Notes under the pieces: generated by a model
Databases searched by the model: none
Told to the model about the DNA's origin: nothing
The model's input: the letters and a program-made list of their open reading frames with translations, nothing else
Position numbers and translations under genes: made by a program
NCBI GenBank assembly: GCA_036172245.1
Contig: JAYWIR010000107.1
Coordinates: forward strand, 62,001-126,000
Source of the DNA: Raillietiella orientalis
Lineage: Eukaryota
Reading direction: 5' to 3'
Length of the DNA stretch: 64,000 nucleotides
Part shown: piece after piece, positions 1 to 57,900 of the stretch
Layout of the letters: every line of letters starts with the position of its first letter
How positions within the stretch are numbered: the first letter of the stretch is position 1

Positions 1-1
1 C

Positions 2-4837: not shown

Positions 4838-5230
4838 GGCGACGCAGGGGGAACTGGTCGCAGAACTCCTGGACCGAGCGCTAGGTCCCAATCCTTGAGA
4901 TTACAAAAGGTGACACCTCTCAAGAATTCGCGAAGGTGTCCCCTCGCACGTGAGAGTCGCCTTCAGTGCCCAAGCAGTCGCCACGCCCTGGATGAAGGGC
5001 CCTTGTCGCGCAGGCACACCTCGAATATCAACCGGAAATGGTAAGACAGATCCTAAGAAACTTTCCTCCGTCTGAACAACCGTGAGCACAGGTAAACGAC
5101 CAAGAAGACGTCGATGCAGCAGACCATTTCCGAGAGATCTTCTAACAAGTTACGCGTACGCAAGGCAGCGCCCAACTCGTTAGCCGTCAGTTTCAATGCG
5201 TGTGGTTCACCTGATAGGCGGAGATTGAAG
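4838..5230 (-). mobile_element. Family A copy A2, distal part of the inverted 5' segment (C-half of APE to FPLRR)
   Basis: Minus strand reads FNLRLSGEP..ANEL..RTRNLL..EFCDQFPLRR, homologous to A1 1490-1890. Continues the A2 APE that is broken at 17837. Confidence 0.8.
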
Positions 5231-7431
5231 TTCATCACCCGGTCACGCCGGGGCGTTTATTAATAATAATAAACTGGTCAGGAACAATGTCCCTAACCAA
5301 CAGAACAACAAGGAACATAAAAAAATCACCGGCACGCAGGCCTGATAAACAAACCGCTCGCAGCGTGGGAGGAATGAGGGGAAACAAACAAAAATCAAAA
5401 ACTGTAGGGAAGGGGAACGGGTTTTTGGTTAGGCTCCGTACTCACGGGGATTATAACGACGAGCACCTGAAATGTTCCGGAGCCTATGGGGACGCGGGTA
5501 TAAAAAGAAAATACAAAATTAGTTTATGGAGGGTAGGGCAATGATCACCGGGCTGGCCGCTGCTGAGCGTGTGTAAATCGGCGGTGTATTGCGGCGAGAT
5601 TCCTTTTTGTCTCCTCTGTCAAATGAGGCCAACTAGCGGATGCTCCCATGTGGAAGGATGCTTTGCTGATTACCTCTTGATGCTGTCCGTTGATTACCAA
5701 CGCCTGGCGGACGGGAACTATCGCGCGTATTCAAGCGATGGTTGCAATCCTTGCGCTTAGGGACAGCCCGCTGGGCGTGCAGGATTGTCGCAGCAAGTCT
5801 CTTGCAGTGCCCAAGGGATGCACTAGTGCTGTTGCCAGCAAACGCTACAATCCATGTAGGATACCGCAGTCTAGAAGTAGGTGCAGGATCGACTCCGTCG
5901 ACCCGCAGCGAACCCAGTTCGCAGATGGAACTCCCCCGGAGTCTTGATGCCAACGCTCGTTACACCGAAAACCACAGTGAACTAAAAGCAGCACAAATTT
6001 TTGCCAAGCAAAAGGGAGCAGCGAACTGTCTACACACTGTAAAGAAACTACAGGTTCTTCTGGGGTGACAGCAAATTCTTGTGCCTACCTGAGGAGTCCC
6101 TTTGAAGTACAACGAGGAGTGGCGCGTCCGCCAAATCAATAGTCCTCCAGGCTCCGAGAAGTTTTCTTTTCGCCGCTATCGTGCAGGAAACCTACAACCT
6201 TGTTGGTTGGCAACTCTCGTTTCTTCCCCTAAAGGCAGACAGCGCTGCGGCGAGAGTCGAGGAAGCTAAGGTAGAAAAGTTCACCTCGTCCTGCACCAAT
6301 TCTTGCAAAGATCGCGGATGAAGACGGCGCAGTGCGCGAAGATCTTCAGAGCGCTTTCCTTGGAACACTGCATAGGATTCAACAAGCTCCTGCCGCCAAG
6401 CTTTGAAGTTCATTGGGCGGCAGGAGATCCACGAGTGAACTTCCAGAAGTGCGGTCAACTGCCGCAATGGAAACCCGAAATCCCGCTTTCTGTATTGGGT
6501 GCCCGGCAAAAGTGAGAGAAATCCTCCGCTGCCGGCGCATCTCGGAAGAAGAATGCGTGCTGGCACACACAGGGGGGATGTCCATAGCTGGGCACACAGT
6601 GCCAGCATTCGGAAGTGCACCTGCAGTCCGATTTGCTCCATTGTCAGGATACCCAAACCAGCATCCCGACGTGGAGAAACCAAATCTTTAAGGCGGATCC
6701 TGGATCTCGCCGGACAACAGAGAGAGTTCCTTAGCAGGCGTTTAGCCCGCTGTTTGGCCGCATAGGGTGGGTCCAAAACAAGAAACAGGGGACGGAGGAG
6801 GGTGGCAGCAAAAGTGTTCCAAATAGTCGCCCGTTCCTGCAAGGTAAACTTGCCGTTGAAGAACGGGCTGATCGCCAACACTGCTTCCTGAAGACAGTCC
6901 GCCTACGCTTCGGCTGCGCCGAAAGCGCTCAACCGAACGCCAAGGTACGTGAAGTACCCGCTTGTGAGGATCCCCAGGCAGAAACAGTCGGACTGCCCCT
7001 CCCACGACGTACCCACAGGGACGATCACGCTCTTCTCTCTGTTCACGCTCATGCCTGCTCCCCGACGAATCAGGTCGAGGAAATCCTCGACACTGGACGC
7101 CGGGGTGGACATGGGGAGCAGAAGAAGCAGGTCAGCAGCGTAGTCGGCCACGGCAGGCGTACCCGGGTAGGAGCTTCGCAAGTAAGAGAGCGTCAGCCTG
7201 TATGCTCCAAGCACCAACACAAAAAAGGTGCTGAAGAGTAAGGGTCTTAAGGTTTCACCTTGTCGAATGCCTATGCCCACGGGAACACCGTAGACGCGGC
7301 ATCCGCTGAAAGAAATACAGGTAAGCGCGTGGCGTCCGCTAGCGCGCAAGTAAAGCAGGAGATGCGCCGGAAATCCAATTGGTTCCAGAAGCTACAAGAA
7401 AAGCTTCTGGTTTACGCAGTCGACCGCCTTG
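5231..7431 (-). mobile_element. Family C copy C1, 3' segment (RT C-half to 3' end)
   Basis: GIRQGE, YAAD and post-RT homology; 3' signal AATAAA-CGC-CCCGG-CGTGA-CCGGG-TGA on minus strand at 5261-5235. Confidence 0.88.
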
Positions 7432-7444
7432 CGTGCTCCAGGGT

Positions 7445-7455
7445 GGACGTGTTTT
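7445..7455 (+). promoter_or_regulatory. Conserved 5'-terminal motif GGACGTGTTTT (candidate internal promoter element)
   Basis: Recurs within ~15 nt of the 5' end in families A, B, C and D, whose UTRs are otherwise dissimilar. Confidence 0.55.
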
Positions 7456-7527
7456 CTCGGTGCTCCTCGTGCCAGGAAGTCTCCCCCAGTGCAAGCGTCG
7501 TTTGGTTCGGCGGTCGATCAGGCAGCG

Positions 7528-9203
7528 ATGCCTGACGCGACCTCCAGAGATGGCCAGGGGGCAGCGGCAACGCCTCGCCCAGAGGCGATAAAGAGGCAAA
7601 GGGCGGCGGCAACGTCGCCCCCAGACGCGATGGAGGTGGGGGCATCCGCCCCTACAGAATCGGTCCCCGCTGCAGCGCGGGCGTGGAGCGCCGTTGTGTC
7701 GACGCCATCGCCTGCAGCCGCGATGGAATTGTCGGCCTATGAAGAGGAGGGGTACAACCCCTCATTGTTCTACAAGGTAGGCAATTTATATTCTTTGGAG
7801 AACGCGCGCAACTTCTCGGAGGGCATGCGCGCTCTCGATGTTAAAGAGGAGGAGCTGAGCGCTATGACCACCCGCAGCGAGGATCAGTACGTTGAGGTCA
7901 TCTGAAACAAGCAGAGCTGGCCCAACCACTGCTAAAAACCCCCGTGGTGATAAGGACGCGCAGGCTCCTCCCTATTACGGCGGACCGCAGCATGGTGGTT
8001 CACCTGTTGGGTGTCACCGCTCGGATGCGCAAGGAACAGGTTCGCGCCGCGTTGGAGGAATACGGAACGGTCAACGCGCAGTGCAAAAAAGGTAGTACTT
8101 TCAAGGACTACACGGAGCTGCAACACGGTTTCACTGCTGCGCGCGTGACCGTTCGCGAGGGCTGCACTCTTCCCCACAAACTGGTGGTCGAAGGCGAAAA
8201 CGTCGACCTCTGGTATGTGGGGAAGCCGAAATACTGTGGCTTCTGCAATACGTCGGGCCACCTCAAAAAGAGGTGTCCCAATGTGCAGTGCCAAGTATGC
8301 GGCACAATGGGCCACACGAGGGAGGTGTGCCCAAAAGCAGCAGTGCGGGTGGTTTCCAAGAGAAACCTTAAAAAACGCGCCCGGCTTCTGCAGAAAAGGC
8401 TAGCGGCGAAAGCTGCCGCGAAGGCTGTGCAACCCGCGTTCAAGACCCAGGCCGCACCCGAGATCCCGGTGACCGACGCCGAAAAAGTTGAGGGAGCCGG
8501 CCAAGAGACTGGGTGGCAAGTGGCAACGGCCAAAAAATCAAAGAACGAGAGGAGGATGGAAAAGAAAATCGCCTACCAACAGAAGAAGAAAGAGCAGGGT
8601 AGCGATATAATTAAAGAGTGCAACGTCGTTGTCGAACGCGTTCTCGATGTTGCCGAACGCTGCCGGAAAGAACTCGCCGCTACCGACGACCTCCCCTCTG
8701 TTGACACTGTCAACAGCGAGGGGAGCGAGCCGGCGGCGGCGTCCGTCATCGACACCACTATCGATGACGTAGCCTTCGCGCGAGCCGCGGAAGAGCTGGC
8801 AGCCTCGTTGCAGCCAGAACCCTCCAAGGCTGGCAAGAAGGCCGTATGGCGTCCGGCCTCCCCTCAGGAGTCCTCATCTTCCGACCCCGAGGTGGAGGCC
8901 GGAAGCGCAGCCTCCGTTTCCACGGCACCGCGCAAGAAGGCCGGACGTAAGTCCACAAAGTCAAGGAAGCTCGTCTCCCCCGTCGAAGGGGAAGAGTTGG
9001 CTTCCGAAAGCGAGGGTGCCATGAGCGTGGGAAACTCTCGGGACACGTCGCCCGAGAGACTCCCACGCGCGGACACGGAGGGGATGAAGGGTGTGGAGGC
9101 CGAACAGGTTCCTCAGGTGCCTGAGAAGGCCTTAACACCCATGGACATCCCACCCGCCTCGCAAGAGGAGGGCTCCCCCACACCTTAATCTTCCGAGCAG
9201 TAA
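7528..9203 (+). pseudogene. B1 ORF1 (two zinc knuckles), frameshifted
   Basis: AYEEEGYNPSLFYKV motif; CGFCNTSGHLKKRC and CQVCGTMGHTREVC; frameshift near 7905. Confidence 0.88.
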
Positions 9204-12200
9204 TGCCGGGAATCTCCTCCCGCCGTCGTCTGCGCATCGCCGTTTGGAACGTGAACGGCATGACAGACGCCGGCAGGAGACGAGACATGGCCGCCCTTCT
9301 GGAGTCCTACGACCTTGCGCTGCTGCAGGAGATCCACGTGATCTCTGCAGAACAAGCGCAAGAGATCGAACGGATCTCCGGAGGGGGGTATGGTACAGGT
9401 GTGGGAGAGCGAAAAGTTGCGGTGACGCCTACATGCTTCAGCCAGCCGTCGAGGCCGCGGCTCGGGGCGTGCGCTTCGACGATCACGGTCGTGTCGGTCA
9501 GCTGACTCTCAGGTGGTCCGACTCGACCGAACTGATCGTCACGTAGGTGTGCGCACCGAGAGGCGCGGACCTGATGACCAGGAGAGCGAGGAAAGAGTTT
9601 TTCCTTGCCCTGCATCGCGACTGGTTGACCGAGGCAGGCGTGCGAAATGCCCATCTGGTTGCAGGCGATTTCAAGGTTCGTCTGAAACCGGATGGGCCGA
9701 ATCACGAGCGTGACCTGGTCAACGAGGTGTGCGCGGCGGCGCACACTTGTAATTTGTTGGCAGGTGTACCAGGGATGGAGGACAACATCGATCACGTGTT
9801 CCTTGACGAGCATCTATGCACTCGTGTGGGCAGGCGCTCCATGTTGACGTGCGAGTTGTCCGACCATCGACCAATCGTGATTGAAATCCATCCGCGCAAC
9901 AGGGGCCTTTCCTCGACACCGTGGCGTTTGCCAGGGGACTGGCTGAAGCTCCCGGACTCGGCGGAACATCTCAGCACGTTCATACGGAGCTTCAGGCTGC
10001 GGAGACTCCACGATTGGGACCGCTTCAAGCGGTCGGTCCAGGAGTTCTGCGACCAGTTCCCTCTGCACCGCCTACCTACGGGTTTTGGGATCGGGTTCCT
10101 TAACGAACAAGCCTACTTGCAGGCTTGTCGTTACGCCAGTACCCGCGAAATCTGCAGGCTGGCGGAATACAAAGCGGGAGCCGAGAGGCAAGCCTGGCAG
10201 TGCGGATCGGCCAGCTTATTGGACGATCAAAGCCAGGAGCACTCGGCACCTCCCCAAATCCACTGCCTGCTGCGGAGTTACTACTCCTCTCTGCATGCCA
10301 GGGCACCTTTGGAGAGGAACGTCTAACGTGTTTTCCTTCCGGAAGGCACTCCAGCGTTCGGGGAGGAGCAGAGAAAGACCCTCGACGAGCCTTTCACGAT
10401 GGAGGAGATCCTCTCGGCCATCGGAAAGCTCAAGAGGCGAAATGCTCCAGGAGAGGAAGGCCTGCCCACGGAGTTTTATCAAACTTTCGCGGCTGAGCTT
10501 ACCCCCCTGGTACAGCAACTAACCTTGCTGATACGCGAAACAGGTGACGTTCCCTCCTCGTTTCGTTCGGCAAAGGTGCGGCTCCTCCCTAAGGGAGGAG
10601 TTCTGAGGAGCATGAACAACTGGCGTCCCATCACAATAGTGAATGCTGATGCCAAGTTGATAGATAAGGTTTAAGTTGAGCGTTTCGGACGGGTTCGCTA
10701 ACGCCTTCATCAGCCAGGAACAGAAGTATGCTGTTCCGGGGCGAAGCATAGGGGCGAACCTGTTCCACGCATCCACCTGGCTAGAGCTCCAAGATGAAAG
10801 GAGCTTCGTGCGCAGCCGGAATTTGGTGCGTGCGCCGGAAAGGGGTTGGATGATCGGGATAGGGGAGGGAGCCCTTTCGGTCGCAATCGACTTGCGAAAA
10901 GCATTCGATTGCGTCGACAAGAATCTCCTTCTGCAGCTTGTGGAATGCTTGGGCTTCATAGTCTCATTAGTGGCCTATCTGCGCTCCAGCTGGCGCGACG
11001 CGCTCATCAATGTTGCCTTCAGCGGGCAGACCGTGCACGGCGTGCCGGTTCGCCGTGGGATCCGGCAGGGAGACAGCCTCAGCCCCTTGTTCTTCAGTAC
11101 CTACCTTGAGTTGGTACTGAGAGCGTACAGGGGAACTCTGGCGCACCTGCCGCCCGAGTGTGCCGGTACGCCGGCCGTTTCAGCATACGCGGACGACCTT
11201 CTGCTGCTGCTCCCTATGTCCACCCCGGCTGCGGCGGTCAAGGAGTTCTTCGACCTGCTGCATCGGGGAACCGGACTTACGGTGAACAGGGCGAAGTCGT
11301 CCGTGATGCCAGTTGGTGCGGCGTGGGCAGGGCAGCAGGACTGGGTCCGTTTGGGGATCCCTACGGTGAGGTACTTCCAGTACCTTGATGTGCCGTTGGG
11401 GGACTACTCCCCTGCGGAAGCGTGGTCCGGCTGCCTTCAAAAAGTCGAGACGGCTATCGGTTCGTTCCGAGGCGGCAGGTTTTTCCTGCCTGAACGGGCC
11501 GAGGTTTGGAACACTTTCGCGGCTCCTCTCCTCCGTCCCCTGCTTTTTGTTTGCCCCCCCACAGAGAGAATTAAAAAGTGGACAAAGGACCTCCTCCGTA
11601 TCGACCTTTGGGGCAACGGGAGGGCCTGAGTCCGCTTAAAGGACTTTTGCGCTCCTCGTCGGGATGGTGATCTTGGCCTCCTGACGCTGGAGCGGCTGGA
11701 GCTTCAGCTCCAGTTCCGATTGTCGGCACACGTTCCAGAGTTTTGGTGCACCTGTTGGTGCATCCCTGCACGTCTCCTTCTCCAGCAAGCCACCGGCAAG
11801 TCGGGACTGACGTCGTTTCTTGCACTCCATCGAACCCGCATCAAGCGATGTGAGCTTCAGCTACGGAGGGTGGCTGCGCTGGCAAGGAAAAATTAAGAAT
11901 TGCACACCTCTCGCCCTTTGAACGTTAGTGCCTGGTTGCAGGAAACCGTTCGAACGTGGCGACAGTTCAGCATGCAACGCTCCCAACAGGAAGGAATGTT
12001 CGTGTTTGGAGGTTACAGAACTTGCACGCTACGCGAGATCCTGGATTATCCAAGGAAGAGAGCGTGGGCAGGAAGAACCCCCTTCGCTACTGCGCTGCCC
12101 TTCCTGATGGAAGATCTCGACAGCGATGTTGCGGCGAAGTGGGTGGTTACAGTAACCATCTCCGGAAAGGAGAAGAATGTAGAAGAGTGGACGACGGGTT

Positions 12201-12786
12201 AGTTAACAGACGCTGCGTCTACGAGTACGCCTCCCAATGGACTTCTGCGCTGGAGCGCGCTGCTCGATGTTCCCATTGAACATCTGAAGTGGCCCCCGGT
12301 GCTCATTAACTCTACCGCCCTCCGCTTAAAATGGCAGGAGTCGGCTCTCCAGTTGCAGCACTGGAAACTCCCCTGCAACGCCCGCCGGCATCACTGAACC
12401 TGGGGAGCGGTGGACCCAAATTGCGTCAGGTGTGGGGAACGGGATTCCCCCTCCTCCTGCTAGTAGAGTGTGTTGCCCTTCTGCCCCTTCGGTTCCGCTT
12501 TGCCGCGGCCATCGGAATCCCCTGCGGCAACCTCAGGGACGCACTAAAAGGCCTCTTCGTTGCCGACGCCCTTCGGCCAGCGGCCTCGTTAGCAGCTTTG
12601 TGCTGCCTACGCGGGATCGTCACCGCTTGCAGCAAGGCTACGGGAGGACAACGTGACCAGGGTGCCTTCCAGCCAGCCTTCCAGTTCCTGAGAAGGTCGT
12701 CCCGATGGCCCCACCTGGATCCAGGAATACAGAAGAAGCTTGCTGGCATTTTGCAAAGGATGCAACGGGTCCACCAGCAACTGTGA
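9203..12786 (+). pseudogene. B1 ORF2 (APE-RT-ZnF), multiple stops and frameshifts
   Basis: MPGISSRRRLRIAVWNVNG, LLQE, AGDF, IDH, SDH, WRPIT, DLRKAFD, GIRQGDSLSP, AYADD. Confidence 0.92.
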
Positions 12787-12973
12787 TCCCTTCCCTTATC
12801 CTCCCAACTTTTCTTTTCTTTTTTGTTTTGTTTTTTGTTTTTCCCCTTTCCCCCTGCTGCCTTGGTGGACCGTACCGGTCTGCGAACCGGTGAATCGGCA
12901 GACACTGTGTTTCTTCGTGCGTAACTGGAGCAATGGTCCAGCCACCGCACATCTTTGTAAAAGTTTATTTTAC

Positions 12974-13004
12974 AATAAACGCCCCGGCGAAATCCGGGTG
13001 AAAA
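12974..13004 (+). terminator. Representative 3' signal: AATAAA + 5-bp stem-loop + short A tail
   Basis: AATAAA CGC CCCGG CGAAAT CCGGG TGAAAA; 13 other copies or variants mark every LINE 3' end in the window. Confidence 0.85.
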
Positions 13005-14060
13005 TCGAACGCCTTGTGGAGATCGACCGCGATCGCAAAGGCATTTGCCGTATCCTCCTGCCGTCGGCGCCTCTCCTTCTTGCCTGCGGCAGTGACTTGC
13101 TCAGCAGCCTGGCTTTGCTGCGCCACAACTTCCTGCAGCTGCATCCATGTACGCACGAAAAGGATGTTCGTCTCCATGGATCGTCCCGGACCCGCGTAGG
13201 TTTGTTCCGGGCTCACCACAGATACCGCGATACTTCCTAACAGCGCGACCCACAGCTTGGAAAACACCTTGACGTCCGAGTTCACCAGGGTGATCGGACG
13301 CCAGTTGTTAAGTTGACGCAAGTCTCCGCCTTTCGGCAGGAGACGCACCTTCGCTGAATGGAAGGAATCCGGGACATTCCCAGATTCACTCATCAGCGTC
13401 GCGAGTTTCAGCATCAACGCAATGAGCTCCACTTCAAAGCACTGATAAAAGTCTTTAGGGAGCTCATCCTCGCCTGGCGCCTTTTGTCTTTTCAGCTCAG
13501 CGATGGCGAACGAAAATTCATCCGCCGTGAAGGGCTCGTTCAGACGTTCGCGTTCCTCCTCGCCGACAACACGAGCATCCTGAGACAGGAGTATCTCAGA
13601 GAGGATATCCTATGTCGGGGATACCGCGTACAGCGAGGAGTAGTAGCGTCTCCCGATGCGGCGTACTTCGGCTGGGGCCGAACATTCCTGGCCCTTGTCG
13701 TCCAACAGGCATGCTACTGCGGACTTCCAGACCTAACGCTCGGCCCTCGCCTTGTACTCTGCGAGACGCCCGACATCCGCGCGTCGCGAATATGTGCGGG
13801 CCTGCAGAAAGTCTCTACTGTTGGCCACGCCCTCTCCGTAACCGCGTGGAAGCCGGTGCAAGGGGAATTGGCAGCAGAACTCGCGGACAGATCTTTTGAG
13901 ATCGTCCCAGTCCGCAAGTTCTTGAATGGCAAAGCCTTGAAGGTATCCATATAGATGGTCCTCAGCCTCCGGTTGGCTAAGCCAATCCGCCTGCATCCTC
14001 CAGTTTTGCAACGGAGGCCCCCTGCCTGGCGGAAGGATCTCAAACTCCAACCTGTGGTGA
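13005..14060 (-). mobile_element. C1 middle segment (end of APE to RT AVDLHKAF)
   Basis: Collinear with 5231-7431 across the B1 TSD; motifs WRMQADW, WRPITLVNSDVK, AVDLHKAFD. Confidence 0.88.
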
Positions 14061-15972
14061 GACTTTGGCAACCCTGCCATGCTCGTGTCCCGGCACGCCC
14101 GCCGTGTCGGCCTATGCCGACGATCTTCTGCTCCTGCTTCCTGGGTCCACCCCGTCATCGGCGCTCGAGGTTTTTTTCGAGTTGCTATACCGTGGGACAG
14201 GCCTCCAGGTAAACAGGACGAAGTCGTCGTTGCTTCTCACCGATTCTACGAGTCCCGGACGGTCGGACTGGATCCGCTTGGGGATCCTCACGGGCAGGTA
14301 CATCAAGTACCTCCGCGTTCCGTTGGGGGACTTCTGCTCCGCAGAAGCCTGGTCCGACCGTCTACAAAAAGTGGAGCTGGCGATCGGCCCGTTCCGGGAC
14401 GGCAAGTTTCACTTGCAGGAACGGGCCACGGTATGAAACGCTCTCGCGGCCCCCCTTCTTCGCCCCCTACTTTTTGTGTGCCCTATCCCGTACCAAATCA
14501 GGACACGGACTAGGGGCCTTATACGGAAAGCCCTCTGGGGCAACCGGAGGCCTCCCGTCAGGCTCACAGACTTGTGCGCTCCACGCAGGGACGGTGGACT
14601 TGGTCTCCTGACGTTGGAGCGCATGGAGCGACAGCTCTAATTCAGAAAACTTGCCCTTGTGGCAAAGTTTTGGACAGCACCCTGGTGTGCACCAGCAAGA
14701 CTCCTTGCTCACAGGGCAACCGGCTGCTTCGGATTGACTCCAATCCTGGTGGCCAACGAACGCAGCCTGAACCATTGTGGTTATCAGCTGCCGGATTTGG
14801 TTGCTCTGATGAGAGACAACCCTTGGATCTCCTGCATCCCAGCGGACTGGACTACTTGGCTTCAGGAGTCCGTATCCGCATGGGCGGAGATCAATGGCAC
14901 CAGCGATGAGGACTTCTCCTGCCTCCGCAGAGGAAGGCACGCTGGTCAGCCACTCCAGAAGATCGTTTCCAACCCACGGAAACTTCTGTGTGCTTCTTTC
15001 CCTTCCTTGCCCCAGTGCTGCCCTCCCTCAGGGAAGTTCGTGACAGCCACCAACAGGCATCGTGGGAAGTGTCCTGTCTCATCGGAGGCAGGAAAAAATC
15101 ACTGAAGGCGTGGACGCCGAGGGAACTAGCGGACGCTAGTACCCCGAGTGTCCCGCCGAACGGACTTTTATGCTGGGGCGCGCTACAAGGTATACCTCCG
15201 GAGGAGGTGAAGTGGCCCCCAGCGTCATGGGACAACGGCACCCTTCCCCTGCAGTGGCAGGAGACGGCGTTGCTTCTGCTTCACTGGGGACTTTTAAGCA
15301 GAGCACGCCTGTCTCGCTGGACATCGGGGAATGTGGATGCTAGTTGTGCAGAGTGCGGCGAAAGGGAGACCTTCCCCCACTTGATTCTGGAGTGTGTTGC
15401 CCTCCACGAAATGTGGGACAGACTCTCGTCGATCCTCAACATTCCGGAGGGTGACCCGAAAAATATATCCAGACGCCTTCTAACGCGAGACGGCTTGCCA
15501 GCCTCCGGGAGCGTAGCAGTGCTCTGCTGCATACGCGGTATCCTGGAGAAGTGGACCGCGTCTAGGAGAGGAAGGACAGCCGGAATGCCATCTACTGGGC
15601 AGCGATCTCCTTGGAGAAAGCGTGCCGTTGGCGCCGACTTCAAAAACATTTACCGGCACTTGTCCGCATTCGAAACCGGATGCAAAGGCCTGCTCACGGC
15701 GCACCGTGATCCCCTCCCTCCCTCTCGCTACCCAAAAACATTGCCCTCCAGACGTTTTTCTTTTTTTGTTTTGTTTTCTGTTTATTTTCCCCGTCCCGGC
15801 GCCAATGAAGGACTTTATCGGCCTCCGGGTCGATAAGGACAAGTGCTATTTAACTTCAATGAACGTCTGACGTCCGAAAAAGAGAATTTTTTTTAACAAC
15901 AAAGACCTTATTACAAAATTTTGTAATGTCAGAATTTTAGTAATAAAAGCCCCGGCTTACCCGGGTGTAAAA
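14061..15972 (+). mobile_element. Family E copy E1, 5'-truncated (RT C-half to 3' end)
   Basis: AYADD, ZnF CAEC..HLILEC, terminus AATAAA-AGC-CCCGG-CTTAC-CCGGG-TGTAAAA; closely similar to the minus-strand copy at 59988-61910. Confidence 0.9.
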
Positions 15973-17836: not shown

Positions 17837-18706
17837 GATTGAAATCTCCCGCTATCAGGTGAGCCTTCCGCACGCTCGTGTCCGTCAGCCAAGTCGCGAT
17901 TCAGGGATTGGAGCAACCTGGTGCGGTCGCTGTATCCCTGTTTACCGCTCGGGACGTACACATTTGTGATGATCAGTTCGATCGAGTTGGACCAGCTGAG
18001 AATCAGCTGAACGTTTCGATCGTCGTCATTGATGCGAACGACCGGCCGGCTCCACGAAGAAACCGACCCCGCAGGTGTTACGGCAGCCGCTTTGCAAGTA
18101 CAGCCGACCTCCCGCGATGGTCTCGATTTCCTGGACTTCCGTCGCAGAGATCCCGTGGATCTCCTGCAGCAGCGCCAGGTCGTGCTCACGCAGGGTGTCG
18201 GCCGTATATCGTCTGTTGCCGTCGTCGTGCAGCACGTTGACATTCCAACAGGCGGCGCGAATCCGACAGCGACTGGCGAGCCCAGGTGTTAGTCCTGGGA
18301 AAACGGCAATGCGGCGTCCGCCACCTGCTAGGGCGGGTCGCTAGGTGGAGGTGAAGGGGAGACAGGTACTGAAGGCACCTTTTCCTCCTCCTCCATCCGT
18401 GCTGGCGCGCCGGCCGGATCACCCGCAGGTTGAGTGGCGCCTACCTGTGCGCCCTTCAACATGGATTCGGGCTGTTCAGGTTCCGGGACTGCAGGGAGGA
18501 CTTCACCCCCCTGCTCACCCTCCTCCATGGTGGTGACCGACTCGATGGCTTCAAGAGTGGGTGTTCCCTCTCCGGGATTCCCACGCTGCCGGTTCCTTTC
18601 GGCTTCTCCTCCTCGGGAAAAGTAAAGGCGCCTCCTGGGTTTCTGGGACTTGCGTCCCCACTTACTGGGGATCGCCTCCGAGGAGGAGGATGTGCTTACG
18701 GCCCTT

Positions 18707-18708
<2 letters not shown>

Positions 18709-18741
<33 letters not shown>

Positions 18742-44270: not shown

Positions 44271-44283
44271 AAAAGGGGAAGAC

Positions 44284-46010: not shown

Positions 46011-46330
46011 GACGATGGCCTTACTACTCCACCAACTCCAGATGCCTGCATCCTGGCAGCTGTTCCGAATGCTCAGGACGACTGCAGAACTTCCACCGTG
46101 GACTTCTCGGCGCTGCTGCTGATGATGATGTTGGTCCCCTGTTGCACTCTTTCCACACTGGCGTTCACTCAAACACTTGCCCTCTCAGGGCACTCAAAAA
46201 TTGCCTTGGCAGTGGTTTTAAACACTGCCTTGGCGGGGTATTGGGTATAGTTTCAAACTAGCAATAACCACGCTTCCCTTTCGTTCATCGGTTCCGATAC
46301 CGCCCGTGCGCAAGGCTCTCGCGATTGCTA

Positions 46331-49300
46331 GAGGAGTCTCTTACTCCTGCGTGGAGGCAGCACTCCAAGAGGCAGCCAAGGCAACGCCTCTTACATCCGT
46401 GGAAGCAGCGCCATCTCAGGATGGCTAAGATAACTGCGACACGAAGGAAGACGGCTGGATGCAGGTGAGAAAGATCATTAGAAAGAAACCATCAAGGTCT
46501 TCGCAGCTCTGTGTGAAGGTGAGTGGGCGAAAGAAACCCGCGATACCTTCCCAGAAAAAGATTCCGATTCTTTCCTCCTGCGCAGTCGTCCTCTCGTGGT
46601 TGGAGCGGAAAGCTGCTGCTGCGGCTAAAAAGACGAAAGTCTCAGCCGCAGTTGCAGAAAGCGCTAGGAAACAGGCAGCGAACGATTTCTCTAATTCCGG
46701 GAAACAGCAGCAGCGCCTGGCAAGCCCTCGATTGTCGGATTCTGATCGAGAGTCCGACAGAAAGAGCACACAGCGCGATAACCGCCCGAAACCGCGCAAT
46801 CGCCTCCCGAAGACCCGCAAGCGCGTGGTTGCCGACGAGGATCTGTTGCCGAGGAGCAAAGAGGAGGGGATGGACCTGACCTCAGAGCTACCGACAACAA
46901 GCAGGGCGGCTTCGAATGGAGATACCCCCTTTCCAAAATCTGCTGTTCTGTCTCGTGACCACTTACCGGACAAGGCGAGAAACCTGTGCTCACCTTCCCA
47001 GCCTTAATGCAGGAAGTCGCCTCTTTTTGTCGATTCAGCGTAGCCTGTTGGAACGTCAATGGGCTGCGTAAGGACGGAAAGAGGCGTGACGTGTCAGACA
47101 CCCTGCAACATTTTGATTTGCTGATCCTCCAGGAGATGCATTACATCTCCGATGCAGAGGTTGCGTAAATCGAACAGCGCGCGGGTGGCACCCTGTACTG
47201 GCGAGAACGTTCTGCACAATCGTGCGGCGTCGGTTTTCTCGTAAATAGTAGGATGGCGGAAGCGGTGTGCAGCGTTCGATTCGACCAGGAAGGGCGAATG
47301 GGCCAACTTGTACTCAAGTGGTCAGATTCAATCGACCTCGTCGTAACGAACGTCTACGCGCAGAGCGGCTTTCATCGGCGTGTCGAAAGAACCGAGTTCT
47401 TCGACGTGCTAGAGAGCCAATGGCTCAGAAACTTCGGAGCCAGAGTGGCGCATCTCGTAGCAGGAGACTTCAACGTCCACCTGCTTTCCAACGAGACGCG
47501 GTCCCTGGCGGAACGGTCGCGGGTGGAAGAGGCATGCGCGTCTGTGCACGCGCGTAACTTGGAAGCCGGCGAGCCTGGACTGGAAAGGTGCGTGGATCAC
47601 CTCTACCTCGCTGAACACCTACTCTCGCGAGTGGGAAGGAGAGGCAGGGTGCCGTCCACGTTATCGGACCATGATATGCTGGAGTTCGAGGGGCTCCCGC
47701 CGGGCAAGAGACCTCTAAACAATGTTTGGAGGATGCCGACGGATTGGCTGAGTCACCCGGAAACGGCGAAGCATCTTCGCCAGTTCCTTTGCGGCTTTGC
47801 CATCCGGGAACTCGCAGACTGGGACCATCTTAAAAGATCGGTTCCCGAGTTTTGCGACCGGTTCCCCCTTCACCTGCTACCACGTAGCTCCGGGGAAGGC
47901 GTGGCCAATAGCAGAGCATTTCTGCAGGCGCGCACCTTCTCGAGACGTGCGGAATTCCGGCAACTCGCAGAGTACAAGGCGAGGGCCGAGCGCCAGGTCT
48001 GGCAGTCTGGAGAGGCTATTCTGCTCGACGACGAAGGCCGGGAATGCGCGGCTCCTGCCGAAGTGCGGCGAGCACCAAAGCGTCACTTCTCCTTGCTCTA
48101 CGCTAATTCCCCGACGGAAAGAGTCCTCTCCGAACAACTTTTGCCGCGGGCTGCACATGGCATCGGCGAGGAGGAACGCGATCGTCTGGACGAGCCCTAC
48201 ACGTTGGAGGAAGTTTCTTCCGCCATCGCAGGACTCAAGAGACGGGAGACGGCAGGTGACGACGGACTGCATGCGGAGTTCTAGCAGAGCTTCGCGGCGG
48301 AAATCGCCCCACTGGTTCTTAGAATCTCGACGCTGATCAGAGTGACGGGCGATGTCCTTTCTTCCTTCCGCTCAGCAAGGGTGCGTCTCCTTCCGAAAGG
48401 AGGGGATCTGCGCCAACTCAACAACTGGCGTCCGATCACATTAGTAAATACGGACGTCAAGTTGTTTTCGAAGCTGTGGGTCACGCGTTTAGGGAAAGTC
48501 GCGGAGTCCGTGGTAAGCCCGGAGCAGTCTTACGCTGTACCGGGTAGATCCATGGTTGCGAACCTTCTTTTCGCGCGCACCTGGTGGCAGCTTCAAGAGC
48601 GCGTTGCAGCGGATAGCCGAACAGCGTGCCAGTGCGGACGGACGACTGAAAGGCCGGAAGCCTTGGCACTAGCAGTAGATTTGCACAAAGCATTGGAATG
48701 CGTAAAGCAGGAACTCCTCTTGGAGCTGCTGGAGCGTATTGGGCTTCCGAATCATCTTCTCCTATATTTGCGCTCCTGCTGGCGCCACGCGATTATCAAC
48801 TTGTATTTCAGTGGCTCCCGTGCTTACGGAGTGGCCGTGCGCAGAGGCATCAGACAGGGCGACAGCTTAAGCACGTTGCTCTTCAGCATCTACTTTGAGT
48901 TGGTGCTAAAAGCGTACAGGCTAACGCTGGCCGTCCTTCCCAGCGCCTTTCCGTGCACTCGGTCCACGGCAGCATACGCCGACGACCTTCTGCTTCTGTT
49001 GCCTATGTCTACTCTGCCTGACTCGGTCCAAGACTTCTTCGAGTTGATCCGTCGTGGAGCGGGCATGAGCGTTAACAGAGCGAAGTGCTCCGTCGTGCCG
49101 GTGGGTGCGTCGTGGGAGGGACAGGCCGACTGGATCCGCCTGGGGATCCCCACGGTCAGGTACTTCAAATAAATTGGCGTACCGTTGGGCGACTTCTGCT
49201 CGTATGAATCGTGGTCGGCCTGTCTTCAAAAAACAGAGATGGCTATAGGCCCTTTTTTGGAAGGCAAGTTCGTCTTGCGGGAAAGGGCGTGCTTATCGGA

Positions 49301-50803
49301 TACTTTCGTTGCCCTCCTTCTCCGCCCCTTATTTTTTGTTTGCTAGCCTCCCTATGTGGTTAAACTCCGGGCGCAGCGTCTCTCACGTAAGGTCTTGTAA
49401 GGCTCTGCGCGATCCAGGGTTCGCCTCAAAGATTTGGTCGCGCCATGCCAGGACGCAGGCCTGATCATCCTGACCATCCAGAAGATTGGACTGCAAGTGC
49501 AGTTCCGGCTTCTATCCCTATGTGGAAAATTGTGGTCTAGTCACTGGTGTGCTCAGGCTCGCCATATTCTCCAGCGATGTGTCGGCAGTGCAGGATTGCT
49601 TTCGTTGCTGCCGCGCAACCTTCGCCGGAGAACTGGATTTGGCTACCCACTGAGGCACTTGTCCTCGTTGCTGTTAGCCCATTCCTGGATTTCGTGCCGC
49701 CCCTCCAATTGGAATGCTTGGCAGCAGAAAGCTCTGGAGCACTGGACTTCAACTTTGGATGTGCGCGCAGAGCAACTGCGACCCTTACAGGGCCTCTTAC
49801 TCAAACCGCTAGGAATGATCCTACAGGACTGGTCGCTTTGGTCCCGGATAGTCGTCTCACCCATCGCCGCAGCGCTGTCTTCTTTCAGGGCAAACAACGA
49901 CAGTAGCCAACCGGTAAGGTGGGAGTTCTTCTGCAGCATTGCAGGAGTGAGAAGACTGCTGAGCGTCTGCAGAACGAGCGTGTTGGTAGACGCTGCCACT
50001 CCTCGTTACCCGGCAAAGGGACTTCTTCGTTGGAGTGAGGTTCTTGGATCACTCCTCGAAGATCTCGTGGTCCCTTCCTTGTGTGTGGACAGCTCCGTGT
50101 TCCCGCTTCGATGGAAGCAGGATGTTCTTCTTTTTCTGCAATGGGGATTCCAGTGCAATAAGCGCAGAAACTTGGTTACAGGGGGAGTCGTCTCCCCGAA
50201 CTGCCTCAGGTGCGAGGCGATAGAATCGCTTACGCACCTGCTCCTTGAGTGTAGTGACTTGCGGGAGTTATAACGGAGACTTGCTTCGGCACTTCGTCGT
50301 CCTCAGGACACTGTCACAGACCTGCTTTGACGCTTCTTCAGAAAAGACGGACTGGATAGAGGTGCTGTTATCGCAACAATCTCTTGCATCCGCGCCATCG
50401 TGATGGCCCGCCGTAAACTAGAAGGAAGCTCGCAGCGAACGGAGGCCGCCAGAATCGCTGCGAACCTTATGAAAGCAGCTGTCAGGTGGCCTCATCTGCC
50501 CAGAAAAGTCTCCAGGGAAGTCGCCATTGTCAAACAGCGCTTCTAGAAAGATTCGGAATGTTTACTACGAAAGATCCTTGACCCCACCCTCCACTGTTTT
50601 TTTTTTGTTTGTTTCCTTATGTTTTGTTTATTCTGCAGACCTCTCCCTCCGTCCCTTTCTTTTGGAAGGCACCCTGCGTGCCGGTGATATTTCTGAACTG
50701 AACTTACTGTATGGGCGTTTCTTGTTTCTCGAAAGGATGAATTTGCCTTGAAGATTGTGGTTCGTTTTTACAAATAAACGTCCCGGCGCAACCGGGTTCA
50801 AAA
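46331..50803 (+). mobile_element. Family D LINE, 3' segment (ORF1 tail, ORF2, 3' end)
   Basis: TAATG overlap at 47005; ACWNVNG, AGDFN, SDH, WRPIT, AYADD, CLRC..HLLLEC; terminus AATAAA-CGT-CCCGG-CGCAA-CCGGG-TTCAAAA. Confidence 0.92.
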
Positions 50804-52095: not shown

Positions 52096-52097
52096 CT

Positions 52098-54989
52098 TCC
52101 CTGCTCGATGAAAAAGGCCTGGAATGCGCGGCACCAGTCAGTATTCGCCGCATAATAAAAACTTATTACTCCTCGCTATACGCGGAAGCACCAACGGCAA
52201 TTATCTTTTCGGAGATACTGCTTTCCCAGGTTGCTGCCGTAGTTAGCGAAGAGTAACGCTCACGTCTCGACGAGTCCTTCACGGAGGAGGAAATTTCCTC
52301 CGCAATAGCGAAGCTCAAGAGACGAAAAGCGCCTGGCGAGGATGTGCTGCCTGCGTAGTTTGATCAGTGCTTCCCAAGGGAGCTCGTCCCCCTGGTGCAT
52401 CGTCTCTCGTCGCTGATGAGGGTTCCGGGGAATGTCCCCAACTCCTTCCGTTCCGCGAGGGTGCGTCTCCTTCCGAAAGGTAAAGACGCACGCCATTTAA
52501 ACAACTGGCGTCCGGTCACTTTGGTGAACTCGGACGTCAAGTTGTTCTCCAAGATGTGGGTTGCGCGCCTAGGTAGAATCGCGCCGTCCTTGGTGAGCCT
52601 GGAGCAGACTTACGCTGCTCCCGGGTGATCCATTGACGCGAACCTCCTGTTTGCACGCACCTGGATGCAGCTGCAGGAGCGCGTAGCGCAGCAAAGTCGA
52701 TCCGTGACAAATGCCACTGCTAAAGGCACACGTTATCGACAGAAGCGGCAAGAGGGTACGCCGGGTGCCTTGGCGGTAGCTGTCGACCTCCACAAAACGT
52801 TCGATTGCGTGTACCAAGCGCTCCTATTGGAGCTTTTGGAACGCCTGTGTCTCCCGGCTCAACTCCTCAAGTACGTGCGTGCATGCTGGCGCCACGCGCT
52901 AACTTGCATTTGTTTTAGTGGCTGCCACGTGCACGGTATTCCCGTGCGCATGGGCATCAGGCAGGGTGACAGCTTAATCCCGTTGCTCTTCATCATCTTC
53001 TTTGAGTTGGTGCTGAAAGCGTACAGGCTGACGCTGGAATACCTGCCTAGCTCTTGCCTGGGAACGCCTGTTGTGACTGCCTATGCAGATGACCTGCTTC
53101 TTCTGCTCCCCATGTCCACCCCGGCGTCCAGTGTCGAAGATTTCTTCGATCTGATTCGTCGGGGAGCGGGCGTGGGCGTGAACAGAGAGAAGAGCGTGGT
53201 CGTTCCTGTGGGTGCGTGGTGGGAGGGGCAGTACGACTGGATCCGCCTGGGGATCCCCACGGCGGGGTACTTCAAGTACCTTTGCGTTCCGTTGGGCGAC
53301 CTCGGCGCTGCCGAGGCGTGGTCGGACTGCCTTCATGAGGCCGAGTTGGCCGCCAGCCCGTTCATGAACGGCAAGTTCACCTTGCCGGAACGGGAGGCTA
53401 TTTGGAACACCTTCGTGGCCCCCCTCCTCCGGCCGCTCTTTTTTGTCTTGAACATCCCCTATGCGGCCAAAGAGCGGGTAAAACGCCGGCTAAGGAACAC
53501 TGTCTGGGGTCCGGCGCGATCCAGGATCCGCCTGAAAGACCTCATTGCTTTACGTCGTGATGCTGGGCTTGGCATCTTGATGGAGAGTATCGGACTGGAA
53601 GTGCAGTTCAGGATGCTCGCACTTTGTGCCCAGCTATGTACTTCCCTCCTATGTGCGCCTGCGCGCATCCTCCTGAGGAGGTGTGCAGGCAGTGAAGGAT
53701 TACTTTCTTTAGTGCCTGGCTTGCGTCACAGGAAACAGAAATTTGGCTATCCTTTGAGATAAATCGCCACCCTATTGGAAGAAAGTACGTGGATTACCTG
53801 CCGCCCAATGAACTATAATGCTTGGAAGCAGGAATCCATTGATTCGCGGGCTGCATTCTTAGGAATGAGCCGTGAAGATCTTTACCCCCTGCGTCGATTT
53901 CAGCCTTGGTCACTCCAAGATGTCATGCAGGACGAGGTGAAGCTTTCCTTCTTGTCCGCCACCCCCCTTGACGAAGCACTGTCTGCCCTCGAGGCTCGAG
54001 ATGACAGTAGCCAGCCGGCAAGGTGGAAGTTCTCCAGCACCATTGCAGGAAGAACAAAACCAGTTGGCGAATGGACCACGAGCGAGCTTGCGGATGCCGC
54101 CACTCCTCGTGCTACACCAAAGGGGTTTCTTTGGTAAGGAGAAGCTCTTGGTGTTGTTCCCGAAGAAGTTATAGTCCCTCCCTGGTGTTTGGACGGTTCG
54201 GTGTTTCCCCTTGCATGGAAGCAAGGCGTTTTGCTTTTCTTGCACTAAGGATTGCGCTACAACGAGCGGCGTTATTGAGTTTCCGGTGGGGGGACTTCTC
54301 CCTACTGTGACCGGTGCGGAGCGACGGAGTCGTTCCAGCACCTTCTTATGGACTGCGGTGCCCTCCAGGAACTGTGGAGGAGGCTAGCAGCAGCTCTCCC
54401 GTCACCAGGAAACACCGCTCGAGAAGTGTTGCGACGGTTTTTCTAGACACAAGGACTTTCGATGGCTGCGACGATTTCCACTGTTGGTTGCATCCGCGCC
54501 ATCGTCACGGTCCGAAACGTGCTGGAGAATACTGGACAGCAATGTTGTGTCACCAGGAAGACAGCTGACTTCATCAGGTCGGCAGCTGCGTGGCGAGACT
54601 TATATGAAGACACAACGGAGGAGCTAACCGGTATCCATCGCCGGATCAGCAAGGGCTTAGAAAGACGAAATCGGTGATGCGCCCTCATTGTATTTTTGAT
54701 TGGTTTTTTTGTTCTCGCGTCCTTTTCCCTGTACGCTCCGCAGTCCTTTTGGTGCTAGAACTTCTGAGTTTCCCGGTAAGTGCGGAGCAACACCAATGTT
54801 CCCTGGGCCCACTCCTCTCATTTACAGTTTTTTTTTTTTTTGGCTCCCTCAGTCGTCAATGTTCTTCCGTTTTCCTAGCCTGCGTGCCAGGGGTGAAACT
54901 CCGCTGCATGTTTTCATAGTCGAGAGCTGGAAACAATTGTTTCCAGCTCGTTTATATCAATAAACGTCCCAACGTGATCGGGTGAAAAA
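52098..54989 (+). mobile_element. Family C-like copy C3 (linker to 3' end)
   Basis: DLHKTFD, GIRQGD, AYADD; protein similar to C1; terminus AATAAA-CGT-CCCAA-CGTGA-TCGGG-TGAAAAA. Confidence 0.9.
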
Positions 54990-57900
54990 TTTCAACGTTC
55001 GCCTGAAACCAGATGGGCAGAATCCCGAGCGTGACCTGGTCAACGAGGTGTGCATGCCGGTGCACACCTGTAATTTGTTGGCCAGTGCACCGTGGATGGA
55101 AGACAGCATTGACCACGTGTTTGTTGACGAGCACCTGTGCCCTCGCGTGGGCAGGTGCGGCAAGTTATTGTGCGAGCTGTCCGACCATCGCAGGATAGTC
55201 CTCCAGATCCATCCGCGCGACAGGGGCCTCCTTTCGTCAGCGTGGCGTCTCCCAGGGGACTGACTAAAGCTTTCGGACGCGGCGGAACATCTCCGCACGT
55301 TAGTACGGAGCTTCAGGCTGCGGACACTCCAGGATTGGGACCGCTTCAAGCGTTCGGTACAGGAGTTCTGCGACCAATTTCCTCTGCACTGCCTAACTAC
55401 GGGTTTTAGGACCGAAGTCCGTAACGAACTAGCCTATCTGCAGGCCCGTCATTACGCCACAACCCCCGGCATCCGCAGGCTGGCGGAATACAGAGCGAGA
55501 GCCGATAGGCAAGCCTGGCAGTCCGGAACGGCCAGTGTGCTGGACGATCAGGGCCAGGAGCACTCGGCACCCGCCCAAATTTGCAACCTGCTGCGGAGTT
55601 ACTACTACTCCCTATATGCCAAAGCACCTCCAAAGAGGAACGTCTTACGACTCCTACTTCCGGAAGGCGCTTCAGCGATCGAAGAGGAGGAGAGAAAGAC
55701 CCTCGACGAGCCTTTCACAATGGACGAGATCCTCTCGGCCATCGGAAAGCTCAAGAGGCGCAAGGCTCCAGCGGAGGACAACCTGCCCACGGAGTTTTAC
55801 CAAACTTTCGCGGCTGAGCTTACCCTCCTGGTACAGCAACTCACCTTGCTGATACGCGAGACAGGTGACGTTCCCGCCTCGTTTCGTTCGGCATAGGTAC
55901 GGCTCCTCCCTAAGGGAGGAGATCTGAGGAGCATGAACAGCTGGCGTCCCATCACAATAGTGAATGCGGACGCCAAGTTGCTGGCTAAGGTTTGGGCAGA
56001 GCGTCAGGGACGGGTTGCCAACATCTTCATAAGCACGGGACAGACATATGCTGTTCCCGGGCGAAGCATGGAGGCGAACCTGTTCCACGCTTTTACTTGG
56101 CTAGAGCTCCAACAAGAAAGGAGCTTGGTGCGCAGCCAGAATTCTGGTGCGTGCGCCGGCAAGCGGTCGGATGGTCGGGTGAAGGAGGGAGCCCTTGCAG
56201 TCGCAGTCGACTTGCGGAAAGCATTCGATTGCGTCGACGAGAATCTTCTTCTGGAGCTTCTGGAAAGCTTGGGCTTCCCGGCCTCATTAGTAGCATATCT
56301 GCGCTCCTGCTGGCGCGACGCGCTAATCAACGTTACTTTCAGCATGCAGACCGTGCACGGCATGCCAGTGCGACTTGTGATCGGGCAGGGAGACAGCCTG
56401 AGCCCCTTGCTCTTCAGTACCTACTTTGAGTTGGTACTGAGAGCGTACAGGGGAACTCTGGCGCACCTGTTGCACGACTGTGCCGGTGCGCCGGCCGTTT
56501 CAGCGCACGCGGACGACCTTCTGCTTCTGCTCCCTATGTCCACCCCGGCTTTGGTGGTCGAGGAGTTCTTCGATCTGCTGCATCCGGGAACCGGACTTAC
56601 GGTGAACACGGCGAAGGCGTCCGTGTTGCCATTTGGTGCGGCGTGGGCAGGGCAGCAGTACTGGTTCCGTTTGGGGATCACCACGGTGAGGTACTTCAAG
56701 TACCTTGGTGTGCCGTTCCGGGACTGCTCCCCTGCGGAAGCGTGGTTCTGCTGCCTCCAAGAAGTAGAGACGGCGATCGGTCCGTTCCGAGGCGGCAGGT
56801 ATTTCCTGCCTAAACGGGCCGCGGTGTGGAACACGTTCGAGGCTGGTCTCCTCCGCCCCTGCTTTTTGTTTGCCTACGCGCAGAGTGATTTAAAAAGTGT
56901 ACAAAGGACCTCCTTCGTATCGCCCTTTGGGGTAACGGGAGGGTCCGAGTCTGCTGAGAGGACTTGTGCGCTCCTCGTCTGGACGGTGGTGTGGGCCTCC
57001 TGACGCTGGAGCGGCTTTAGCTTCAGCTTCAGTTCCGAATTTCGGCACTTGTTCCAGAGTTGTGGTGTACCTGTTGGTGCGTCCCTGCACGTCTCCTCCA
57101 GCAAGCGACCGGCAAGACGGGACTGACGTCGTTTCTTGCACTCCGTCGCCGCGTCCACCGATGCGGACTCCAGCTACAAAGGGTGGCTGCTCTGTACCGG
57201 AAAAACCCAGGATTGGTCACCTGTCGCCCTTTGGACGGTAGTGCCTGGTTGCAAGGAACCGTTCGAACGTGGGGACAGTTCGGCATGCAACGCTCCCAAC
57301 AGGAACGAAGGTTCCTGTTTGGGGGTTACAGAAGTTGCACGCTCCGTGAGATCCTGGAGAATCCAAAGAAGAGAGCGCTGGCAGGAAGAACACCCTTCGC
57401 TGCTGCGCTGCTCTCCCTGGTGGAATATCTGGACAGCGATGTTGCAGCAAAGTGGGAGGTTACAGTAACAATCTCCGGGAAGGACAAGAAGATAGGAGAG
57501 TGGAAGACGGGTCAGCTAACTGACGCTGCCACCCCGAGTACGTCTTCCCATGGACTTCTTTGCTGGGGCGCGCTGCTCGACGTTCCCATTGAACGTCGAG
57601 CAACGTTCATTAGTATCCTCCGGTACTAATGAACACCTCCACTCTCCCCTTAAAATGGCAGGAGTCGACTCTCCTGTTGCAGCACTGGGGACTCCCCTGC
57701 AACGCATGCCGACACCCCTGGACCTGGGAAGCGGTGGACCCCAACTGCGTCAGGTGTGGGGAACGGGAGTCCCTCCCTCACATGCTAGTGTATTGTGTTG
57801 CCCTTCGGCCCCTTTGGTTTCGCTCCGCCGCGGCCATAGGCATCCCCTGTGGCAACCCTAGGGACGTCCCTAAAGCCCTCTTCGTTGCCGACGCCCTTCG

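Follow-up and report, generated by a model that had tools for sequence, protein, structure and literature searches.

The 64,000-nt stretch of the Raillietiella orientalis genome analysed here (assembly GCA_036172245.1, contig JAYWIR010000107.1, positions 62,001 to 126,000 of the forward strand; hereafter the window, whose own numbering is used throughout) is an unbroken nest of degenerate non-LTR (long terminal repeat) retrotransposons. Self-BLAST, Pfam and tblastn showed long interspersed nuclear elements (LINEs) inserted into LINEs throughout. Two sister copies of family C, C1 and C3, meet their hosts at the codons of one catalytic motif, Gly-Asp-Phe-Asn (GDFN), of the apurinic/apyrimidinic endonuclease (APE) encoded by another LINE. 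Both 3' junctions of this lineage (two of two, n = 2) lie at GAT|TTCAA in the sense orientation, one in a host of family A and the other in a host of family B. On balance, it is probable that the C1/C3 lineage prefers the GDFN-coding sequence, GG(A/C)GAT|TTCAA, which would amount to the sequence-directed homing of a LINE into LINEs. In human L1 ORF2p, the aligned counterpart of the motif is LIMGDFNT (G144–N147), in which D145 and N147 are active-site residues.

The C1 insertion in A2

The C1 copy (minus strand, 5232–17836) splits the A2 endonuclease at GGAGAT|TTCAATC. Read on the minus strand, the upstream junction consists of A2 ending in ...CTGATAGCGGGAGATTTCAATC (in a longer reading ...CACCTGATAGCGGGAGATTTCAATC) and then the C1 5' terminus AAGTGCGGACGTGTTT, while at the downstream junction the C1 tail ...CCGGGTGATGA is followed by the A2 flank ACTTCAATCTCCGCC (in the longer reading ...AATAAACGCCCCGGCGTGACCGGGTGATGA and then ACTTCAATCTCCGCCTATCAGG). 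The uninterrupted copy A1 reads GCTGGAGTCTTCAATCTCCGTCTG across the same point. In the tblastn comparison, residues 1–173 of the A1 endonuclease matched at 18340–17838 and residues 172–289 at 5229–4882; as these parts match separately, the A2 endonuclease is split at residue 172/173. Self-BLAST paired A1 606–1495 with 18710–17837 and A1 1488–1891 with 5230–4838, so that the two halves of A2 overlap by 8 bases.

The insertion is flanked by a target site duplication (TSD) with copies GATTGAAGT at 5223–5231 and GATTGAAAT at 17837–17845. The upstream copy (17837–17845, minus strand; ATTTCAATC in the sense of A2 and C1) comprises the last A2 bases before C1 and overlaps the Asp-Phe-Asn codons. The downstream copy (5223–5231, minus strand; ACTTCAATC in sense) directly follows the C1 tail ...GGGTGATGA. 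The duplication can be read as A(T/C)TTCAATC, 9 bp with one mismatch, or as a perfect 7 bp, TTCAATC, if AC is counted as tail. The sequence-only reading of this DNA had placed the insertion and its duplication at these positions, and the TSD is borne out there in either of the two lengths.

The C1 copy is now in three pieces. The 3' segment (5232–7426, minus strand) carries the terminal hairpin tail, the 3' untranslated region (UTR) and the reverse transcriptase (RT) down to its KAFD codons; the middle segment (13005–14060, minus strand) carries the RT N-terminus and the endonuclease C-terminus from about residue 230; and the 5' segment (15973–17836, minus strand) carries the terminus, a 5' UTR of about 78 nt and open reading frame 1 (ORF1; ATG near 17758, open to 16526). 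Because the three pieces are collinear, C1 represents one insertion, into which B1 and E1 inserted later. B1 (7427–13004, plus strand) is a full-length B element with a 5' UTR, a CCHC-bearing ORF1, APE, RT and tail; it lies antisense in the KAFD codons of the C1 RT with a TSD of 8–10 bp, and its own GDFN site is intact (9664–9674). E1 (14061–15972, plus strand) is a 5'-truncated copy of family E lying antisense in C1.

Window positions 1–20000 were also compared with contigs of a relative (run X1; about 5–10% diverged, 11% of sampled words present). One contig of 3755 nt, about 5% diverged (record 4), spans 17866, with 30 nt of A2 flank, to 15971, continues with 797 other letters where E1 sits and then with 14059–13005. 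A second contig (record 1) covers 5216–6251, which is the C1 tail with 16 nt of A2 flank. Since these two contigs span them, both C1/A2 junctions exist in an independent data set. The 797 letters are presumably the lost N-terminus of the C1 endonuclease; E1 is the younger insertion, and the N-terminus was lost with it. The deletion by E1 of about 797 nt of C1 that the relative keeps marks E1 as a 5'-truncated insertion with target deletion.

The host A2 consists of a 5' part (17837–20952, minus strand), with the 5' terminus motif near 20950, ORF1 at about 20910–19891 and endonuclease residues 1–173, and a 3' fragment (4820–5231, minus strand) with endonuclease residues 172–289 and beyond. The far side of the 3' fragment is cut by an antisense insertion of A1, the tail of which ends at 4819. 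Over 18677–19343, ORF1 of A2 is separated from its endonuclease by about 750 nt of additional sequence, for which the depth in the relative's contigs was 33, versus 1.3 in the adjoining bin; this extra sequence may be a short repeat insertion.

The C3 junction with B4

C3 (52099–54989, plus strand) is a 5'-truncated sister copy of C1 with RT, 3' UTR and a complete tail. The last base of the tail ...AATAAACGTCCCAACGTGATCGGGTGAAAAA is 54989, and from 54990 the sequence is that of B4, which opens with TTTCAACGTTCGCC (FNVRL; TTTCAACGTTCGCCTGAAACC in the longer reading), so that the junction as a whole reads (A)TTTCAACG. The intact B1 reads GGCGATTTCAAGGTTCG at 9664 over the corresponding site (GCAGGCGATTTCAAGGTTCGTCTGAAACC in the longer reading). 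B4 (54990–58328, plus strand) is a B-family copy from the Phe-Asn codons of GDFN onward; it tracks B1 for 3.3 kb at 85.8% identity, and its tblastn match starts at endonuclease residue 172. The C3 junction therefore falls within 1–2 nt of the nucleotide used by C1, at the Asp-Phe-Asn codons and again in sense, and the 3' flanks of both copies map in sense to B1 coordinate 2243–2248. Where C3 meets B4, nothing is missing from its tail, as expected for a target-primed junction. The junction letters, tblastn and self-BLAST thus confirm what had been read from the sequence at both places, C1 splitting A2 at the GDFN codons and the C3 tail joining B4 at 54990.

At its other end, B4 has its tail antisense at the KAFD codons of H (58329–59244, minus strand), a C1-like fragment that is 83.3% identical to C1 and hosts B4. 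Between 9668–13918 and 54989–59241, that is between B1 with the adjoining part of C1 and B4 with H, identity is uniform at 83–86% across the boundary of B and its host; the two composites could stem from the segmental duplication of a B-in-C arrangement. The possibility that B4 is simply a 5'-truncated copy that landed beside an older C3 was considered unlikely, as it would need the target half that belongs to H to have been deleted precisely as far as the point where the C3 tail ends.

Relationship and independence of the two events

The RT cores of 12 copies were used for a phylogenetic tree, midpoint-rooted for drawing only. The tree recovered a C clade {C1, C3, C2, X} with support 100/100, C1 and C3 being a sister pair in it (100/99), together with a B clade {B1, B3, B4} (100/100) and an A group {A1, A3, H25} (93/97). 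The coding sequences of C1 and C3 are 71.6–72.8% identical and their last 220 nt (3' UTR) 59.5% identical, which means that neither was copied from the other. Their hosts belong to different clades, A2 to the A clade and B4 to the B clade. As for relative ages, C1 is older than B1, which is nested in it, and C3, as the copy that interrupts B4, came later than B4. The identity of about 72% and the different host families together make the C1 and C3 insertions separate events. A segmental duplication as the origin of both C junctions was ruled out, the hosts and the C copies being too different. The same codon and orientation in two host families, as first read from the letters, thus stand as independent occurrences.

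A regular expression for the 3' end gave 19 rows in the window, of which the 11 with the hairpin form were kept (A1, B1, B3, B4, C1, C2, C3, E1, E2, F and X) and eight without it were dropped. The 3' flanks of nine of the 11 tails could be mapped, those of E1 and F being unmappable. Seven of these nine flanks are antisense to the host and lie at positions other than that of C1 and C3; only C1 and C3 are in sense. Under a model of insertions uniform over an element of about 5.6 kb and over both orientations, the chance that C1 and C3 agree within ±2 nt and in orientation is small, by our own arithmetic 5/(2 × 5578), or about 4.5e-4; that of such an agreement in any one of the 55 possible tail pairs is about 0.02.

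Probable site preference and alternative explanations

A lineage-specific target is a reasonable reading of the two C1/C3 junctions. Several observations weigh against it. The cases number only two, and to the left of C3 lies the unrelated minus-strand element Y, with no TSD and with the 5' half of B4 not upstream, so that only the 3' junction of C3 is informative. Eight of the 10 endonuclease copies in the window that retain the motif region have an unoccupied GDFN site, and the empty sites include those of B1 and B3, which carry GAT-TT(C/T)-AA. The heptamer ATTTCAA occurs 10 times in the window and at GDFN in three of them; a preference for a 7–8-mer accordingly fits nearly as well as dedicated GDFN targeting. 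The C1/C3 endonuclease, its specificity loops included, is absent from the window apart from the C-terminus retained in C1. Other C-clade tails also lie elsewhere. C2 (26571–29019, minus strand), a C-clade copy that is not sister to C1 and C3 and has three mismatches to the tail pattern, ends antisense in the ORF1 of B2 at ...AACGCGTT|CGACAACG, and the tail of X lies antisense in the post-endonuclease linker of Y. Among the relative's joints listed, at least three enter the C1 tail position, the same strand being assumed for each. In one of them, A-like sequence at 1208 joins 5230 with six letters between; read against A1, this is a GGGTGATGA tail, antisense near residue 80 of an A-like endonuclease and with the C1-type ending GATGA. 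In another, B-like sequence at 9366 joins 5235 with TTC between, which gives a C-like tail antisense at QEIER codons; this joint fits the 5' junction at 39259 in the window, with an implied TSD of about 15 bp.

A third joint of the relative speaks for the preference. It takes B-like sequence at 9669 to 5237, and GGCGAT is exactly where the endonuclease of the host stops; 16 letters lie between this break and a C-like tail, the first eight of them being the reverse complement of TTTTAACG. The joint looks like a rearranged GDFN junction. C2 was tried as a third GDFN case in the window and ruled out, its flank aligning to a B-type ORF1. Also in favour, the motif sites differ in sequence: two of the four with GAT-TT(C/T)-AA (A2, B1, B3, B4) are occupied, both reading GAT-TTC-AA, and none of the six with GAC, GTC or GAT-CTC (A1, D, D', X, Y, G); the GDFN sites of the C clade's own X and Y are among the five empty GAC or GTC sites. 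The claim that family C has a target of its own therefore holds, so far as it does, for C1 and C3; C2 and X have their tails elsewhere and antisense, two of the relative's tails likewise point elsewhere, and C3 lacks the upstream part of B4 and a TSD.

The counts just given lend some credit to a looser preference, in which C elements nick at a short T-rich or TTCAA-like few-mer, or land anywhere in the array, and the agreement of C1 and C3 is coincidental, owing to the abundance of LINE endonuclease genes in this DNA. C-clade tails occur at four other places (C2, X and two of the relative's joints, among those listed), and the full pattern GGNGAYTTCAA with at most one mismatch was found 14 times versus 9.1 expected, six of 100 shuffles reaching 14, which is no significant enrichment. 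Against coincidence stand the identical nucleotide and orientation in two diverged hosts, with the probability given above under the uniform model, and the fact that the only two sense insertions among the nine mapped flanks are each other's closest relatives. We regard this explanation as rather unlikely, though it deserves weight. The C3|B4 junction could, on the other hand, be the product of a deletion or ectopic recombination, which would leave C1 in A2 as the one true case. The foreign left flank of C3 with no TSD would fit such a rearrangement, as would the other non-collinear flanks in the window, where X has B3 as its left and Y as its right neighbour, and the uniform identity of the two B-in-C composites that suggests segmental duplication. 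The breakpoint would, however, have had to coincide with the very end of an intact C tail and also with the exact codon at which C1 entered A2; moreover, 5'-truncated insertions with target deletion are common in L1 biology. This origin of the junction seems to us very improbable.

A further possibility is that the site is remembered rather than recognised, in that the endonuclease has little specificity, read-through RNA carrying a few bases of the TTCAA flank pairs with the nicked target at the next GDFN site, and daughter copies inherit the site of their mother, as has been described for rDNA-specific elements that are co-transcribed with their target. The boundary of tail and target is ambiguous by 1–2 nt in both C1 and C3, sister lineages share the site whereas cousins differ, and integration into a specific target can be reinforced when an element is transcribed together with that target (PMC4494074). 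The C1 TSD is, however, a clean duplication of host bases with no flank-derived extras beyond it, and we consider such a memory improbable. We favour the reading that the C1/C3 lineage prefers the sequence coding for GDFN. The specificity may be conferred by the endonuclease or by base pairing between the target and the 3' end of the RNA, and the preference would be expected genome-wide.

Under the favoured reading, the C1/C3 endonuclease would nick the strand complementary to the host coding strand, either between the Asp and Phe codons or directly beside that point. The 3'-OH of the nick would prime reverse transcription of the element RNA, the end of which has a conserved AATAAA followed by a GC hairpin and a brief stretch rich in A, and a second nick 7–9 bp downstream on the coding strand would give the duplication (A)TTCAATC. 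The predicted outcome is a sense insertion that destroys the endonuclease gene of the host. Tails of the C1/C3 lineage would match AATAAACGYCCCRRCGTGAYCGGGTGA, and full-length 5' ends would follow GGNGATTTCAAYS.

Family B at the KAFD codons

Site-directed nesting in the array is real, as family B demonstrates, and the case for site specificity is stronger for B than for C. Five B junctions lie at the RT codons HK(A/P)FD, all antisense and in hosts from three families. Three are tails, those of B1 in C1 (12975–13004, plus strand), B3 in D (36099–36070, minus strand) and B4 in H (58300–58328, plus strand), and each is followed by TCGAACGCC or TCGAATGG. The other two are full-length 5' ends, of B1 (7427) and of B2 (25389, in the A-clade copy H25). 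They amount to at least three independent events, because B4 in H may be a segmental duplicate of B1 in C1 (85.8% and 83.3% identity). No recurrent site was found in the window for A1, E1, E2, F, X or C2, among which E1 and F have unmappable flanks. The proposal that families partition target sites is thus upheld for B, antisense at KAFD, and suggested for C1/C3, and it does not extend to A, E, F, X and C2. As a separate observation, E2 (tail at 59988–60017, minus strand) lies antisense at the conserved ORF1 motif WYVG.

A wider and tentative reading, possible although we would not expect it, is that the array houses a guild of sibling LINEs that each home to different invariant codons, C1/C3 in sense to GDFN and B antisense to KAFD. 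Insertions would disable competitors and at the same time create fresh targets, the island would perpetuate itself in the manner of a Zepp-like centromere, and GAC versus GAT at the motif may give partial self-immunity.

Comparison with known site-specific elements

Known targets of site-specific LINEs comprise ribosomal DNA, telomeres, small nuclear RNA (snRNA) genes, microsatellites and one DNA transposon. Among known systems, elements of the Tx1L or Tx1 group come close to C1/C3; they are likewise APE-type and L1-related and insert sequence-specifically. Tx1 itself inserts into the DNA transposon Tx1D and so is a LINE with a specific target inside another transposable element (PMC4494074); in the same group, Keno inserts in U2 snRNA genes and Kibi and Koshi in microsatellites. 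The likeness is one of element type and targeting and, unlike in the Tx1 group, the C1/C3 target consists of catalytic-motif codons of autonomous sibling LINEs of the same superfamily. R1/R2 and TRAS/SART share with C1/C3 the recurrent insertion at one nucleotide, the fixed orientation, the short TSD and a conserved target serving as a safe haven. Their targets are host RNA genes or telomeric repeats, whereas here two junctions lie in the gene of another parasite. Their specificity has been shown biochemically, for example for the endonuclease of R1Bm (PMC1919474).

Zepp and ZeppL form dense clusters in which L1-like LINEs are nested in one another with little else present, the putative centromeres of green algae (PMC3446292, PMC8226300, PMC9940879). 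The window resembles these clusters in being nested and almost wholly LINE, a likeness of cluster structure alone; unlike Zepp, with one family, it houses several co-resident families. In the portions available of the Zepp and ZeppL literature (PMC3446292, PMC8226300, PMC9940879, bioRxiv 10.1101/2025.03.28.645958, PMC9977147), no sequence-level target of nesting is given. Nor does a LINE that targets the catalytic-motif codons of others appear in the available portions of the Zepp and Tx1-group literature (for the latter PMC3747384 and PMC4494074), a scope outside which the two original Zepp descriptions lie.

The C1/C3 target would, in our reading of the sequences, be of a new kind for a site-specific non-LTR element. 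If this is true, homing of one LINE to active-site codons in others would define a new target class and a clear case of competition of parasite on parasite. It would also explain simply, at the level of sequence, why some L1-like elements accumulate only in nested islands of LINEs, such as the Zepp-type clusters put forward as centromeres in algae; such lineages would build these islands because each insertion inactivates the endonuclease of its host and adds LINE sequence. In addition, natural endonucleases with a specificity of 8–11 bp would be at hand. Homing endonuclease genes, inteins and group I/II introns occupy conserved active-site codons, which stay invariant. The logic is the same, a selfish element sitting at the most constrained codons; the mechanism is entirely different, in that C1/C3 would insert by the target-primed reverse transcription of LINEs, and the gene that is hit belongs to another mobile element.

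Shared architecture of the array

The G + C content of the window is about 57%. Among 146 ORFs of at least 133 aa, Pfam detected Exo_endo_phos (APE) and RVT_1 on both strands and little besides, and self-BLAST showed many copies that are 65–93% alike. All families except G share a 5' terminus of the form A(G/C)(T/G)G..GACGTGTTT, a CCHC ORF1 and a 3' end in which AATAAA is followed by a GC hairpin (CCCCGG-loop-CCGGG), a T and a brief stretch rich in A. Example tails of this 3' module, AATAAA/GC hairpin/GGGT/A-rich run, lie at 4790–4819, 33673–33702 and 50774–50803. The assignment to the APE-type class is based on Exo_endo_phos followed by RVT_1 on one strand (Pfam on A1, B1, D, X, G and others), on TSDs (7–9 bp for C1, 8–10 bp for B1), 5' truncation (C3, E1, A3, C2) and no LTRs, and on CX2CX4HX4C in the ORF1 translations of B1 and C1. 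In C3, RVT_1 is present; for C1, the endonuclease C-terminus was detected by tblastn, its N-terminus missing from the window. The zinc knuckles of ORF1 gave no Pfam match at E ≤ 0.001, and an Rfam scan at gathering thresholds for a ribozyme or other RNA family at the 5' ends of elements returned only one U4 snRNA.

Protein homologue searches gave only distant matches, the best with 52% identity over 106 aa (E 9e-26). Searches with two queries returned five proteins and one protein, with best E values of 1.6e-5 and 1.5e-8, respectively, and the full HMMER search gave 888 matches, none at ≤1e-30. The six top HMMER clusters comprise one with a name (turtle assembly) and five without names, and the protein Atlas matched generic eukaryotic RT clusters. 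Two patterns of the C tail had no match each (0 and 0) in public metagenome contigs. In public genome contigs, the tail pattern matched once, in a bacterial metagenome-assembled genome, which was taken as chance.

The full-length C-clade element X is in two parts. The 3' part (46332–50803, plus strand) carries its own, unoccupied GDFN site, GGAGACTTCAA, and the 5' part (39259–40615, plus strand), with the 5' terminus ACAGTGCAGACGTGTTT, is joined antisense to the endonuclease N-terminus of B3. The flanks of X are non-collinear, with the B3 endonuclease N-terminus on the left, the linker of Y on the right and no TSD, an arrangement that points to ectopic recombination involving two copies of the C clade, or else to insertion accompanied by rearrangement. 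Between the two parts lies an inserted unit named U4-G (40616–46317, minus strand), whose TSD copies at 40603–40615 and 46318–46330 (13 bp, CTCGCGAT(C/T)GCTA) lie inside the C-clade ORF1. Within this unit, G, a LINE of a different clade with APE at 43530–44435 and RT at 41517–42842, carries a full-length U4 snRNA match (46180–46317, 76 bits) fused to its 5' end. The U4-G unit looks like an snRNA–LINE chimera that arose from template switching.

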